From a virus: DNA of 64,000 nucleotides. The notes under the pieces are model-generated. The model was not told the origin of the DNA and made no database searches. It saw only the letters and a list, made by a program, of their open reading frames with translations. The first letter of the stretch is position 1. Each line of letters starts with the position of its first letter. The stretch lies in IMG/VR virus record IMGVR_UViG_3300028584_001238. One strand, given 5' to 3'. The position numbers and the translations under genes were made by a program. Shown here in pieces: positions 2,352-58,122 of this stretch.

Positions 2352-3095
2352 TTAAATCAAACACATTTCAGTCAATAACAATCGGGATTTCAATAACTCC
2401 TTGTCATCTGTGTATTGCTTGTTAAATATAGACAATAATTGTACAGTGCCTTCAACCGTTGATATCAACTTATCATAGTTAGGGTATTCGGTGAATTCAT
2501 CATAAAATTGTTTTGGTGTCACTGAACAGCACGTTAAGAAGTCGATTAAGCAATCATCAAATTCTTTATTGGCTATAAAAAAGTTGGAACTAAGTCCAAA
2601 AGATTTCAAATCTTTTGAAACTGAATACTGCGTTTGATTAGAATAAGTGAATGTTTTAACAATACGCGATGATGGATTTAATACAGTCTTAATTTGTAAT
2701 AAACTATACTCATTACTATGAGAACGTGAAAATTCAAGACTAATATCAAAAGAAGACTGTATAAAATTCATATCATGATCAAGTTTTAAACTGCAAGATT
2801 TGGATTTGTAAGGCATTTTATTGCTAATAACACTATCAGTAATAGTGACATATACACAAATAGCAGTGTTTTCTTTGTGAGTAGATACAAGAATGCTGCC
2901 ATATTTAAATAGATAGAAAATATCAATATTACTGCCAATCATTTGAGAGACTTCCTGAAATGGATTGGGTTCGTTAGATAAATCAATATCAAATACTTGT
3001 TTGAATAAAAAAATAAATTTTGGATAAAATAATGAACCAACATCAAGGTTATCCAAGTATTTTAATTTCATCATGGACTCATGAATTGTTATCAT
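2352..3095 (-). CDS. family A (MxxI-tail) paralogue
   Basis: MITIHE start; FYxxFxEYP.Y and LLKSRLLLTEMCLI tail shared with the array. Confidence 0.85.
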   Translation of the reverse strand: MITIHESMMKLKYLDNLDVGSLFYPKFIFLFKQVFDIDLSNEPNPFQEVSQMIGSNIDIFYLFKYGSILVSTHKENTAICVYVTITDSVISNKMPYKSKSCSLKLDHDMNFIQSSFDISLEFSRSHSNEYSLLQIKTVLNPSSRIVKTFTYSNQTQYSVSKDLKSFGLSSNFFIANKEFDDCLIDFLTCCSVTPKQFYDEFTEYPNYDKLISTVEGTVQLLSIFNKQYTDDKELLKSRLLLTEMCLI

Positions 3096-16878: not shown

Positions 16879-17874
16879 TTAGAACTTGAAAAACCCAAAA
16901 GCGTCCTTAATTTCATTGACGTTCTGGTTCGTTTCTGTTAGTGCTTTCATTGTCCCCTGCTTCAAGACATCAAGCACAAAATCATGGTGGTTATTCAACA
17001 AGAGACGTTTCTCTCTGATAGGAGCAATGACAGTTTCTAAAACACCCACCAGACGCTTTTTTAATGTGCCATCACCTAACCCGCCACGTAGATAGAACTC
17101 TTTAAGGTTCGCCACCTCATCCACATCAGGATCGAAAGCATCAAGATAAGTGAACACTACGTTACCTTCTACTTGGCCGGGATCTTCAACTCGCAAGTGA
17201 TTGCTGTCTGTAAACATCAAATTGACGGCCTTTTGAATGTCTTTAATGCTTGCGTATAGATTAATCGTATTACCGAGCGATTTGCTCATTTTAGACTTAC
17301 CATCGAGGCTTGGCAGTCTTCCTACTGTCGAGGTAAGAGCTTTGATTGTAGGAACAATCTCAAAACCTATCTGGGAGTTAAGCTTGTGGACAATCTCGTT
17401 CGCTTGCTCAATCAACGGAAGCTGGTCTTCCCCGACTGGAACAAGGTCAGCTTTGAACGCTGTAATATCAGCAGCTTGTGCAACAGGATAGGCTAAGAAA
17501 CCTGCTGGAATGCTGCGTTCGAAATTTTTAGCTTTAATCTCATCACGAATGGTAGGATTCCGTTCTAAGCGAGAGACAGTGACAAGGTTTAGATACAACA
17601 AAGTCAGTTCTGCAATAGCTGGGAGATGTGATTGAACACAAATCGTAGTCTTGTTCGGGTCAATACCACAAGCCAGATAGTCTTTAGCGACTTCAATGAC
17701 GTTATCACGCACTTTGGTAGGATTACCCATATTGTCGGTCAACGCCTGATTGTCAGCAATCAAGACCGTTTGCTGGTGCAGGTGCTGCAGCTCTACTCGA
17801 TTTCGCAATGACCCTACGAAATGCCCAAGATGAAGTGAACCTGTTGGCCTATCGCCAGTTAAGATCTTTGACAT
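16879..17874 (-). CDS. trpS: tryptophan--tRNA ligase
   Basis: LTGDRPTGSLHLGH (HIGH-like), YPVAQAADI, VPVGEDQ, KMSKS motifs. Confidence 0.95.
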   Translation of the reverse strand: MSKILTGDRPTGSLHLGHFVGSLRNRVELQHLHQQTVLIADNQALTDNMGNPTKVRDNVIEVAKDYLACGIDPNKTTICVQSHLPAIAELTLLYLNLVTVSRLERNPTIRDEIKAKNFERSIPAGFLAYPVAQAADITAFKADLVPVGEDQLPLIEQANEIVHKLNSQIGFEIVPTIKALTSTVGRLPSLDGKSKMSKSLGNTINLYASIKDIQKAVNLMFTDSNHLRVEDPGQVEGNVVFTYLDAFDPDVDEVANLKEFYLRGGLGDGTLKKRLVGVLETVIAPIREKRLLLNNHHDFVLDVLKQGTMKALTETNQNVNEIKDAFGFFKF

Positions 17875-38391: not shown

Positions 38392-39390
38392 TTAATGAGC
38401 GTGATGGTTATCGTCAACTTTATCAGATTTTTCTGCTACTTCCTTTTTATGCACTTCGGGCTGCAAGGTGATATGGTTAATCTGAAACTTTTCAGACAAC
38501 ATCAATTGAATATCAGCTAACACTGTTTCCCATTCATTCATGCTAGAAATTTCAACGTGTGCAGACAATGAAATGTGTTCCGAAGTCATAGACCAAATAT
38601 GGAGGTCATGTACAGAGATAACATTAGGAATTTCATTCAAATTCTTACCGACTTCGACATAATCAATATGTTCTGGAACACCTTCTAAGATAATTCTGGC
38701 TGTTTGTTTCAATAAATTGTAAGTAGGTACAACCAAGATAAGAGCAACCACAATAGAAATAATCGGATCAAAGACGGTCATGCCAGTGAAATAAATAATC
38801 ACACCTGCTGCAATAGCGGCCACGCTACCCAGTAAATCACCAAGCACATGGAGAAATGCACCTCGGGTGTTTAACGAATGGCTGTGTGAGTGCAATAACC
38901 ATGCTGCAAAGATATTAATAGCCAATCCGATGGAAGCAATCCAAATAATTGTAGTTGATTCAACGGGCCTTGGATTAATAATACGCTCAATACCTTCATA
39001 GACCAAGAAGACAATCACCGCAATCATGAACAAACCGTTCAGTAATGCACCAATAATCTCCCAACGGCCATGTCCATAGGAATATCTATCATCGGCGGGC
39101 TTTTGGGCAAGAATTGCCATAATTAAAGCCAACATCAATGAAGATGAGTCGGTTAACATATGGAATGCATCAGAAATCAAAGCCAATGAGCCAGAAAACC
39201 AACCACCAATCATTTCAACAATAGCAAAAGCAAAGGTAATTCCCATAATAATGGCAAGCTTTTTGCGGCCACTGGATTTTTGTTTATTGATTTCATGAAT
39301 GTGAAGACTAGGACAATGATCATGATTTGCCACGTTAACCGTGTCATGAGCATGTTCGTCGTGAGAGTGATGAGAATGGAAGCTATGCAT
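38392..39390 (-). CDS. zitB: cation diffusion facilitator Zn/Co/Cd exporter (ZitB/CzcD-like)
   Basis: SLALISDAFHMLTD, YSYGHGRWEI..AL.NG, AFLHVLGDLLGS, VHDLHIWSMT, HITLQPE; His-rich N-terminus. Confidence 0.9.
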   Translation of the reverse strand: MHSFHSHHSHDEHAHDTVNVANHDHCPSLHIHEINKQKSSGRKKLAIIMGITFAFAIVEMIGGWFSGSLALISDAFHMLTDSSSLMLALIMAILAQKPADDRYSYGHGRWEIIGALLNGLFMIAVIVFLVYEGIERIINPRPVESTTIIWIASIGLAINIFAAWLLHSHSHSLNTRGAFLHVLGDLLGSVAAIAAGVIIYFTGMTVFDPIISIVVALILVVPTYNLLKQTARIILEGVPEHIDYVEVGKNLNEIPNVISVHDLHIWSMTSEHISLSAHVEISSMNEWETVLADIQLMLSEKFQINHITLQPEVHKKEVAEKSDKVDDNHHAH

Positions 39391-48668: not shown

Positions 48669-49547
48669 ATGATAACAAAAACAAATATGGTAATATTATT
48701 TCTATTTGGAATATTTTCAACATTAATTATAAAAAACTATCCAATCAATCCAGTGGCGATAGATCTTAAAATTGTCAGTATCAAGTGGTATGGTCTTTTG
48801 TTTTTGACAACAATTATAATTGCTAGAATAAAGTTAGTTAAAGATATAACAAAAATAGACAATAAATTAAAAGAAGACGATGCTTACATGCTTGTTTTAT
48901 ATGCTGTATTTGGGATGATTATTGGTGCAAGAATTTTATATCTAATCGTATACCAAGGATACCCACTGGAACATTATTTTAGTCATCCTCTCGACATTAT
49001 TGCTTTATGGAAAGGAGGCGTCTCTTTTCATGGCGGGTTAATTGGTTTAGTTATGGGCGTCTGGTTCTATGCTAGAAAATATAAAATACAGTTTTTGAAA
49101 TGTATGGACATTATAGCATTAACAGCTCCAATAGGTTTAGCAGAGGGTCGATTAGGAAACTTTATCAATGGAGAATTATGGGGGAAAGTGACGGACGGGC
49201 CATTTGGAATAGTCTTTCAAAATGCAGGGGCATTGCCAAGACATCCATCACAAATTTATGAAGCCATATTAGAAGGTGTTGTTTTATTCTTCATATTGAA
49301 AGCGTATTCGATGAAAGAAAGAACAAAAGGATCTATATGTGGATTGTTCATGGTTATGTATGCGATATTCAGATTTTCAGTTGAATTTGTTAGAGAACCC
49401 GATGCAAATCTAGGCTATATTGCTTTTGGTTGGTTAACAACCGGTCAACTATTATGTGTTCCAATGTTGGTGATTGGAATAATGGTAATGAATTATGATT
49501 CAATTTCGAAACAATTGTGTCGTCACCAAATAATAAAAGGAGCTTAG
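48669..49547 (+). CDS. lgt: prolipoprotein diacylglyceryl transferase
   Basis: WYGL, GAR..Y, W.GG.SFHGGLIG, GRLGNFINGELWG, RHPSQ.YE, RF.VEF.REPD motifs. Confidence 0.93.
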   Translation: MITKTNMVILFLFGIFSTLIIKNYPINPVAIDLKIVSIKWYGLLFLTTIIIARIKLVKDITKIDNKLKEDDAYMLVLYAVFGMIIGARILYLIVYQGYPLEHYFSHPLDIIALWKGGVSFHGGLIGLVMGVWFYARKYKIQFLKCMDIIALTAPIGLAEGRLGNFINGELWGKVTDGPFGIVFQNAGALPRHPSQIYEAILEGVVLFFILKAYSMKERTKGSICGLFMVMYAIFRFSVEFVREPDANLGYIAFGWLTTGQLLCVPMLVIGIMVMNYDSISKQLCRHQIIKGA

Positions 49548-56699: not shown

Positions 56700-56890
56700 T
56701 TCATTGCTGCAATAGGAACCGATTACCTATGCCTTATCGACTCCACCACGAAGGTGGGAACCGTCTGGTTCTGCCCGGTCACAATCCGGTCGGACAGGCT
56801 ACAAGAGCCTACAGCAAATCTGGCCGCCGAAGTAGGGACTAGCCTACGACATCATAGATTACACAGTCACCTGAATCCCCTATGATTATT
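56700..56890 (-). ncRNA. GC-rich multi-hairpin non-coding segment
   Basis: Stems atcatag/ctatgat, gtagg/cctac, aggct/agcct, ccgg/ccgg, ccac/gtgg, atagg/cctat. Confidence 0.4.
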
Positions 56891-56910
56891 CGGCAATAAA
56901 AAGGTGTAGC

Positions 56911-57123
56911 TTATACTGCTGTTTTTGCGTCCATTTCAGCAAGACGACGATCCATATCCGCACGCATTTCAACAATCTGCTGAGCGTCAGCCTTCATACA
57001 AGCAATGGCAGATTTATCAAACAACGTTTCAATATGAGCAAAGACAGCTTGGCGTTGTTCGGCAGTCAGGTAAGAAACAAGTTGACTAGCATACTCAGTT
57101 GCAAATTCGTTATTCTCAATCAT
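56911..57123 (-). CDS. hypothetical protein
   Basis: Start MIENNE at 57123 after GGAGAG; the longer ORF-track version runs through structured RNA. Confidence 0.6.
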   Translation of the reverse strand: MIENNEFATEYASQLVSYLTAEQRQAVFAHIETLFDKSAIACMKADAQQIVEMRADMDRRLAEMDAKTAV

Positions 57124-57148
57124 GACACTCTCCATCACTGTTAAAAAG

Positions 57149-57354
57149 AAAAAAGCTGTCATCGACAACTCTTTGAAATAGGGTTTGCAACAAGAGCCGG
57201 TTCGCCCAACCGTTTTAATCGAGGAAAACAGCACCCTCAATGCCCTTGTTGCTAAGAGAGGGACTAAGAAATCACCTCTCCTTCTTACAATGGCTCGCCC
57301 GACCACCGCTACCATTCAGAACCATTTAAGTGGTTCTCCGTATTCGTTTAACTG
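57149..57354 (-). ncRNA. structured RNA 2 (5' module plus one 3-way-junction motif, ends in terminator)
   Basis: TTGTTA-17-TATAAT promoter 57361-57389; junction 57187-57252; terminator 57149-57170. Confidence 0.6.
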
Positions 57355-57399
57355 GTCGCTATTATACATCAACCACCTGTAAATAACAACCTTTTAATT

Positions 57400-57647
57400 T
57401 GGTCTTAACGAAGGCCAGTCCACCTAACCGTTTTAATCATAGCCACTAGGACTATAATTCCTTCGCTAATTGACAATCAAGTTCGTAACAAAGGCCGCTT
57501 CACCCAAGCGTTTTAATCAAGAGAAACACTCATCTCTGATGCACTTCATTACTATGAAAGGGAGTTTATTCTCACCTTTCGTGATAGCTTGCCCGCGACA
57601 CCGCTGCTATCCAACCCTCTATGGCGAAGGCTCCGAATTCATTTGAT
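57400..57647 (-). ncRNA. structured RNA 1 (5' module plus two 3-way-junction motifs)
   Basis: TTGATT-17-TATAAT promoter 57654-57682; junctions 57485-57552 and 57406-57468. Confidence 0.6.
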
Positions 57648-57688
57648 GGAATGATTATACCACAAGTCATCACAACAATCAAGCAATT

Positions 57689-57762
57689 TGGCCGGTGAAG
57701 TAGGACTTGAACCCACGAGTATGGTTACAACACCATTTGCTCACCATTTGAGCGTTTCACCG
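57689..57762 (-). tRNA. tRNA-like gene with aberrant anticodon arm (identity unresolved)
   Basis: Perfect 7-bp acceptor CGGTGAA/TTCACCG, G73, encoded CCA, D and T arms; anticodon stem ATGGT/ACCAT closes only a 6-nt loop GTTGTA. Confidence 0.7.
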
Positions 57763-57893
57763 ATTTGTTCAGAGTAAGAGAAGAAGCTAGGTCTACCTGA
57801 ATCACCTATTTTTAATGGAAATGGTCCAGCATTTCGATTAATTCTCAACTTAAATCATTGTAGCATAAAACAAGTTTCAACACAACAACAATT

Positions 57894-58015
57894 TGGTGCA
57901 GATGGCAGGATTTGAACCTACGTTACCGATGTTGCAAGGCACTCACGCCTTAACGGTAGAGCAACCTTTATTCAAGGACGGAAGGCCAACTCTCCTATTA
58001 CACTCACACACCCGC
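57894..58015 (-). tRNA. 122-nt tRNA-like RNA (Leu-like ends, expanded interior)
   Basis: T arm GTAGG-TTCAAAT-CCTGC, acceptor GCGGGTG/CATCTGC, A73, CCA; own promoter TTGAAC-17-TAGAAT at 58064-58092. Confidence 0.55.
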
Positions 58016-58122
58016 GTTACAATCCTGAGTGACTTTGAAGCTGTCGTCTCATTCAATGTAGCCATTCTAGCAAACCTTTCAGCCTTGTTCAAGACCTTTT
58101 TTCATCTTTTTTTAAGTAGATC

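Follow-up and report, generated by a model that had tools for sequence, protein, structure and literature searches.

Orphan RNAs in phage tRNA clusters are already known. In bacteriophage T4, species 1 and 2 (rnaC and rnaD) are structured non-tRNA RNAs of ~120–140 nt that are encoded in tandem beside the phage tRNA genes, and to our knowledge no function has been assigned to them for decades. ROOL and GOLLD are orphan structured RNAs of phages and prophages that are often located near tRNA genes; they are roughly 500–800 nt in length and are represented by Rfam models.

Here, we describe a stretch of viral DNA of 64,000 nucleotides (IMG/VR record IMGVR_UViG_3300028584_001238), referred to as the window, whose minus strand contains two homologous RNA units at 57149–57682. 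As in T4, the two RNAs are arranged in tandem beside tRNA genes, and by position they are non-tRNA RNAs within a phage tRNA cluster, their stability being a prediction. They differ from rnaC and rnaD, however, in having their own promoters and a modular build, and they lack the tRNA-like T arm in which rnaC ends. A covariance model of their three-way junction (3WJ), called R1, was searched with filters off against T4 positions 66000–78000; the best score was 10.1 bits (E = 1.8) and did not fall at rnaC or rnaD, indicating no homology. The tRNA-adjacent setting is also similar to that of ROOL and GOLLD, but the present units measure only 70–230 nt and have no Rfam match. The RNA family and its fold are without a described relative.

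Architecture of the RNA units and their tRNA island

From 57682 to 57141 on the minus strand, the locus consists of a promoter, unit 1 (5′ domain, hairpin H3, and 3WJ copies A and B), a second promoter, unit 2 (5′ domain, H3, and 3WJ copy C), a terminator, and a gene (Table 1). A near-consensus match to a sigma-70-type promoter precedes each unit, whose 5′ domain comprises two hairpins (module X, with hairpins H1 and H2), and the two units contain a total of three copies of the 68-nt 3WJ (module Y). Units 1 and 2 can be aligned from end to end, including the promoters, with compensatory differences in every hairpin, and GAAU(U/A)CGGAG is common to both. In unit 1, the conserved apical part of H2 reads A-GC-GGUGUCGCGG-GC-AA. 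Hairpin H3 is optional between the 5′ module and the 3WJ; it is present in most units and absent from units a and b of the related locus L009.

A preliminary description of the region had listed these minus-strand elements, i.e., the three junction copies, the 5′ modules, and the shared decamer, and all of them lie where it placed them. The same is true of its two separate promoters, of the terminator ahead of the small gene, which was recovered by a terminator scan, and of the invariant junction nonamer (GAUUAAAAC), which is identical in 3/3 window copies. Its structural account concerned real elements but missed the tRNA-island context and the separability of the 5′ module from the 3WJ.

Table 1. 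Features of the RNA locus on the minus strand of the window, in the order of transcription.
Feature	Position	Strand	Description
Weak tRNA-like gene, adjoining unit 1 upstream	57692..57762	-	Rfam tRNA model 34.2 bits; no ARAGORN call
Promoter, unit 1	57654..57682	-	TTGATT, 17 nt, TG-TATAAT; 10/12 consensus matches; same boxes in L008, L147, and L013
5′ domain (module X), unit 1	57575..57643	-	Single-stranded AAAUGAAUUCGG, H1 (57613-57632), H2 (57583-57611); R2 84.3 bits
Hairpin H3, unit 1	57557..57579	-	AAAGGUGAG...CUCCCUUU; compensatory changes relative to unit 2
3WJ copy A (module Y)	57484..57553	-	P1, AUC, P2, U-GAUUAAAA, P3 with loop GGGUG, P1′; R1 67.6 bits; z = -2.9
3WJ copy B	57404..57471	-	No 5′ domain of its own; P3 loop AGGUG; R1 71.9 bits; z = -3.7
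Promoter, unit 2	57361..57389	-	TTGTTA, 17 nt, TATAAT; 10/12 consensus matches; kept in L008, L013, and L147
5′ domain (module X), unit 2	57281..57348	-	AAACGAAUACGG, H1, H2 (H2 ~57289-57316); R2 77.7 bits
Hairpin H3, unit 2	57254..57282	-	AGGAGAGG...CCUCUCUU
3WJ copy C	57186..57254	-	P3 loop GGGCG; R1 83.9 bits; MFE -31.9 kcal/mol; z = -5.3
Conserved tail 3′ of P1′	57175..57185	-	AAACCCUAUUU in the window, AACCUAAUUU in relatives; candidate processing site
Intrinsic terminator, unit 2	57141..57174	-	11-bp stem (57174..57150) and U tract; terminator scan
Small gene, 74 aa	56911..57135	-	No Pfam family; start ~20 nt past the terminator; no own promoter in the gap

A 134-aa open reading frame (ORF) that spans 56911–57315 on the minus strand is an artefact. 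Its first 60 codons cross unit 2 and the terminator, and the same frame in L008 stops after 10 codons. The true product over this ORF is 74 aa, starting at 57135, or 70 aa, starting at 57123.

In the window as well as in its relatives, the RNA units are always located within islands of RNA genes. The order in the window is a 122-nt tRNA-like RNA, the weak tRNA-like gene of Table 1, and units 1 and 2. In G001, two tandem units are followed 11 nt on by tRNA-Cys, and the stretch holds seven tRNAs. Unit b of L009 ends 11 nt ahead of tRNA-Cys, the junction of L148 ends 7 nt ahead of tRNA-Met, and the copy of L180 lies ~85 nt ahead of tRNA-Met. In L165, a junction with its own promoter stands between tRNA-Met and tRNA-Asn inside an array of seven tRNAs. 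In G006, the junction stands between two copies of X, the second of which precedes an initiator-like tRNA-Met or a tRNA-like gene; at 163181 of the same record, X and a simple hairpin lead into the tail ACCUAAUUU, and a tRNA starts 2 nt further on. The conserved tail is found 2 nt before a tRNA 5′ end in both L009 and G006.

These arrangements reveal two separable modules. The junction is autonomous, since it stands alone in the window (copy B), L014, L155, and L165. The 5′ domain is a second module, which usually starts the transcript and can precede either a junction or a tRNA. Promoter-like boxes are located before the units in the window, L008, L147, L148, L158, L160, L161, L165, and L180, and a terminator follows the 3WJ in the window, L014, L155, and L160. 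The 3′ boundary of a unit is an intrinsic terminator, the following unit, or a point a few bases upstream of a tRNA.

Several tRNA genes of these islands are unusual in themselves. The tRNA-like gene at 57692–57762 has a non-canonical anticodon loop of 6 or 8 nt, depending on the stem register (UGUUGUAA), and is kept in L006 with the same score of 34.2 bits. A metatranscriptome contig from run X17 joins 57685 to 57890, skipping the 204 nt that comprise this gene and its flank, and some relatives may lack it. At ~2700–2790 (minus strand) of L182, a tRNA-like gene without an ARAGORN call ends in CCACCA, has a good T arm and an irregular anticodon arm, and is followed by a terminator; it resembles the 122-nt tRNA-like RNA of the window in being non-canonical. 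ARAGORN also reported tRNAs with four-base anticodons in L009 (7866–7941, agaa) and G006 (163041–163117, tttg), as well as tRNAs with a CUA anticodon (amber suppressors, labelled 'Pyl') in L165 (3096–3171) and G006 (179840–179914 and 180849–180923). The presence of CUA tRNAs in two junction-carrying contigs may point to stop-codon recoding.

Covariation and distribution of the two modules

R1 comprises 68 positions and 19 pairs. When it was searched against the window with filters off, the three copies scored 67.6–83.9 bits, while the next best match in the 64 kb reached 17.5 bits. The minimum free energy (MFE) folds of copies A, B, and C are the 3WJ, and 0/200 shuffles fold as well. The bare nonamer GAUUAAAAC is commoner in the window than expected (6 occurrences vs 1.75); since it is not rare on its own, the signal resides in the whole motif.

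In an alignment of the 3WJ copies made with R1 (A5), 89.3% of the paired cells can pair, compared with 69.7% in shuffles. Double compensatory changes, i.e., changes on both sides, occur in 16 of 18 pairs, and the covariation score is 0.62 vs 0.25, a value reached by 0/500 shuffles; slid registers gave 0.05–0.14. All intact copies adopt the same junction fold when the junction strand alone is held unpaired. The many G.U pairs fit the minus strand only, which identifies it as the RNA strand. For module X, an alignment of 17 sequences (A7) has 100% of its cells paired, with double changes in 11 of 15 pairs and a covariation score of 0.62 vs 0.27; hairpin H1 covaries in each unit. The proposal of two homologous structured RNAs with covarying stems is thus borne out in both modules.

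The 3WJ is closed by a P1 of 10–11 bp and alone folds at −22 to −32 kcal/mol. Its conserved unpaired or invariant parts are (C/A)-AUY after P1, the (U)GAUUAAAA strand that links P2 to P3, the RGGYG loop together with the upper portion of P3, and the G-C/U where P1′ begins. P3 is unbroken in all copies; the invariant C and G on either side of it form its closing pair and bring its length to 5 bp. The G that precedes P1′ pairs with C in 16/25 copies and faces A in 8/25. AUY may also pair with the GAU of the junction (A-U, U-A, and U.G or C-G); this would extend P2 and leave UAAAA as the sole junction strand, but the pairing is not proven, as the change from U.G to C-G is one-sided. Inspection by hand and an all-against-all column scan revealed no consistent covariation for long-range pairing of the 5′ leader with the 3′ tail, for an L2-L3 kissing contact, or for an L3-tail pseudoknot. 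A contact between L3 and the tail was discarded as sterically implausible, the two being ~15 bp apart.

Module X consists of a single-stranded AAAYGAAUNNGG, H1 (7 bp), and H2. The latter has a 6-bp stem, an A, two invariant G-C pairs around a G-rich apex GGYG...CGG, and then RA. In most units, X starts 5–10 nt past the predicted transcription start. Matches of R2, the covariance model of X, always have a Y downstream in G001–G005. Divergent two-hairpin versions were found in L180 (6216–6282 and 6358–6430), L182 (2801–2866), and G006 (~163130–163240, minus strand); they precede tRNAs or tRNA-like genes and not only the junction, and they were not detected by R2. X might be a leader common to the RNA genes of such elements, if a broader model agrees.

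A search of the window with Rfam 15 (4227 models) at gathering thresholds returned only two tRNA matches. With E values up to 10, region 56800–58100 gave only chance snoRNA-like matches of at most 20 bits, and five homologous loci gave no match overlapping the RNAs. Neither ARAGORN nor the Rfam tRNA model called the 3WJ or X; the P1 of 10–11 bp, the P3 loop of 5 nt, and the absence of CCA distinguish the 3WJ from tRNA and tmRNA. A literature search yielded no description of this RNA family. The preliminary description had been unable to place the motif in a riboswitch or ribozyme class and had suspected a new RNA family; covariation together with the absence of any Rfam 15 match agrees with both statements.

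Relatives were found by pattern scans and then scored with R1. To date, 24 intact distinct copies of the 3WJ from ~10 contig lineages and one decayed copy have been collected, and their conservation is partly due to shared ancestry, many of them coming from close relatives. The carriers are giant phage-like records of 150–437 kb, metagenome contigs, and one contig of a Flavobacteriaceae metagenome-assembled genome (MAG). Among the IMG/VR records, G001 (437 kb, 98% complete, 27 tRNAs) has four copies; G002–G005 (150–190 kb), which are close relatives of the window, have three copies each; and G006 (290 kb, 96% complete, 35 tRNAs) has two variant copies with the junction GAAUAAAAC or AAAUAAAAC. 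Metagenome contigs L147, L148, L155, L158, L160, and L161 also contain copies, as does the 1.86-Mb contig L150, which has three. The MAG contig, L165, shows a strong match to PHROG and encodes seven tRNAs, one of them a CUA suppressor. A third unit of L147 (1238–1308) combines an intact 5′ domain (83 bits) with a decayed junction (31 bits), in which the 3′ strand of P1 is lost, the junction sequence is GAUUAACAC, and the P3 loop has changed; it appears to be a pseudogene copy.

No match was obtained by blastn of the region (queries of 700, 68, and 1201 nt) against INPHARED (50,697 phage records) and PLSDB (72,556 plasmid records). A loose pattern for the 5′ module hit 115 loci in IMG/VR, nearly all of them chance GC-rich matches, and L167 (within a phosphorylase-like gene), L146, L184, and L185 were rejected as false positives. 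Terminase_6N was not found in G001–G005. Since the relatives are classed as proviruses in IMG/VR and a 1.86-Mb contig contains one of them, the element could be a free giant phage, a provirus, a plasmid, or something else. Sequencing runs labelled with single organisms contain most of the sequence, with 80% of the sampled words present in run X1; if these runs are of isolates, the RNA would be experimentally accessible. Among its orphan genes, the window carries cellular-type genes for TrpRS (16879–17874, minus strand), Lgt (48669–49547, plus strand), and a CDF cation-efflux protein (38392–39390, minus strand). The TrpRS is 69% identical to trpS of Acinetobacter-named records, which is only a host hint.

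Short contigs from three metatranscriptome runs (two studies), 88–97% alike, and one from a probable RNA library align to 57090–58084. In runs X16 and X17, the RNA island is covered and the 74-aa gene is uncovered, a difference to which no weight is given. These contigs are a weak hint of expression, since DNA carry-over could explain them.

Proposed function and alternative explanations

The units are probably stand-alone, stable RNAs that act in trans by binding a macromolecule, encoded in the tRNA island of a giant phage-like element. Host RNA polymerase would transcribe them from the strong promoter-like sites, and the RNAs would be cut from common precursors together with tRNAs. RNase E type cleavage follows the motif RN|WUU; the tail AACCUAAUUU, which recurs at module borders, fits this motif and is therefore a putative processing site. 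A rigid binding surface for a macromolecule could be formed jointly by the P3 loop, the invariant junction, and the G-rich H2 apex; this macromolecule would most likely be a host or phage protein and less likely the single-stranded RCCA end of a tRNA or the 3′ end of 16S rRNA. Given the variable number and order of modules, the RNAs might target the translation or tRNA apparatus as multivalent scaffolds or decoys while the host is being taken over. The complementarity of the loops to RCCA or to the anti-Shine-Dalgarno sequence involves motifs of only 3–5 nt and may be due to chance, and pairing with the 16S tail would not survive the change between U and C seen in the P3 loop.

One observation runs counter to an action in trans: unit 2 has the layout of a cis leader, with a promoter, a structured RNA, a terminator, and a promoterless gene. 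A cis-acting riboswitch or attenuator, in which the 3WJ is the aptamer (in tandem in unit 1) and controls the terminator at 57174–57150 and hence the 74-aa gene, would explain why promoter, leader, terminator, ribosome-binding site, and gene follow one another without space for a second promoter, and why L014 and L160 share this layout. Like an aptamer, the RNA combines a highly conserved junction and P3 with variable surrounding stems, and GCUCUU of P1′ could form 6 bp with AAGAGU of the terminator. Even so, we regard a riboswitch as unlikely. P1 and the 3WJ as a whole are very stable by the values given above, the 3WJ stays intact when the 3′ arm of the terminator is removed, and no antiterminator is present in the window, L014, L155, or L160, where the elements fold independently. 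Moreover, copies lie 7–11 nt before tRNAs (L148 and L009 unit b), before a promoter (copy B), after a stop codon (L155), and in a tRNA array (L165), several of them without room for an expression platform, and no gene family recurs downstream. A similarly low probability is assigned to an explanation that treats module X as a put-like cis antitermination or leader element of stable-RNA operons and Y as a separate cargo RNA. The hairpins of X would then modify RNA polymerase so that transcription continues past structured RNAs, past tRNAs, and past the terminator and enters the genes downstream, and the 74-aa gene can indeed be transcribed only through the terminator. X consists of two hairpins over ~60–70 nt, in which it may be similar to the put RNA of phage HK022; it is promoter-proximal in most units, and it also precedes tRNAs in G006. 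On the other hand, X is not visibly promoter-proximal in unit b of L009 or at its second occurrence in G006, and a put-like role accounts for X only, leaving the 3WJ aside.

The compact junction with its invariant unpaired nucleotides and its position between RNA genes would also suit a ribozyme of the small self-cleaving type, or a signal dedicated to separating the RNAs of a polycistronic RNA/tRNA precursor. This we consider very unlikely: at E values up to 10, none of the Rfam ribozyme models (hammerhead, twister, twister-sister, pistol, hatchet, and HDV-like classes) matched, the junction strand lengths (3, 8, and 0) misfit the hammerhead core, and the stand-alone copies of L165 and L155, which have their own promoter and terminator, need no processing. 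That there is no RNA at all, and that the region is protein-coding, a DNA-level repeat (binding sites, an att or a pac site), or a chance repeat, is hardly conceivable. The 134-aa ORF and two plus-strand ORFs do overlap the region, but the former is broken in L008, the stem substitutions are compensatory with G.U pairs on one strand only, the covariance model scores are far above background, and the covariation already contradicts such a reading. Of the functions offered in the preliminary description, i.e., a protein sponge, a riboswitch, or a ribozyme, the second is disfavoured by the stable P1, the lack of a platform, and the copies beside tRNAs, and the third has no support from the class models; binding of a macromolecule fits best.

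Giant phages carry large tRNA islands, and the partner of the junction and P3 loop would reveal what share non-tRNA RNAs have in the takeover of translation. Its identification could uncover a new mode of RNA-protein or RNA-tRNA recognition. With two small, separable, covarying modules, strong promoter-like sites, and clear boundaries, the family is a clean case for study.

Relation to other RNA systems

Some known RNAs pair with tRNA 3′ ends, including RNase P through the GGU of L15, T-box RNAs through their UGGN bulge, and 23S rRNA through the P loop. A GGU or GGC, the complement of R73-C74-C75 of tRNA as in RNase P L15 and T-boxes, occurs both in the P3 loop (RGGYG) and in the H2 apex (GGYG), and the RNAs lie among tRNA genes; the likeness is only 3 nt long. 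By analogy, the 3WJ and the H2 apex could conceivably represent a new class of receptor for the RCCA 3′ ends of tRNAs, or the junction a new class of small-molecule aptamer or ribozyme, although such a role appears doubtful. A tRNA-end receptor would mean that a giant phage captures, shields, or sorts tRNAs, e.g., against host toxins that attack tRNA 3′ ends.

Several other resemblances were considered and rejected. A K-turn, 5S rRNA, the SRP Alu domain, a T-box sequence, and a mimic of a CRISPR repeat are likenesses that gain no support from Rfam or from the conservation pattern. Mimicry of the Shine-Dalgarno sequence (GGAG, GGUG, AGGUGA) is likewise unsupported, as GGGCG loops would mismatch the 16S tail. 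A system of the Y RNA (YrlA) type is disfavoured, since TROVE/Rsr (PF05731) and RtcB (PF01139) are absent from G001–G005. Type III antitoxin repeats are near-identical tandem repeats of ~36–45 nt beside a ToxN-type locus. The present copies, in contrast, are 68 nt long, 64–76% identical, and spaced by 80 and 218 nt, with no adjoining toxin gene.

Junction riboswitches, such as the purine riboswitch, resemble the 3WJ in architecture. Both have three helices, the 5′ and 3′ ends of the RNA come together to close P1, and conserved junction strands connect stems that vary in sequence and covary. Yet P1 is long in the 3WJ and not a short, switchable helix, there is no conserved L2-L3 complementarity, the search for an expression platform was negative, 5′ UTRs are not the consistent location of the copies, and no Rfam model matches.

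The comparison with sponges such as CsrB and RsmZ and with phage decoys (pseudo-ToxI and RNA anti-CRISPRs) concerns the macromolecule-binding function that we favour. The loops differ, being GGYG here and GGA in CsrA sites, and the copies are diverged and covarying instead of near-identical; no toxin gene or CRISPR repeat lies next to them. What these RNAs and the present units have in common is their construction from short repeated modules with conserved apical loops, present in a variable number per transcript.
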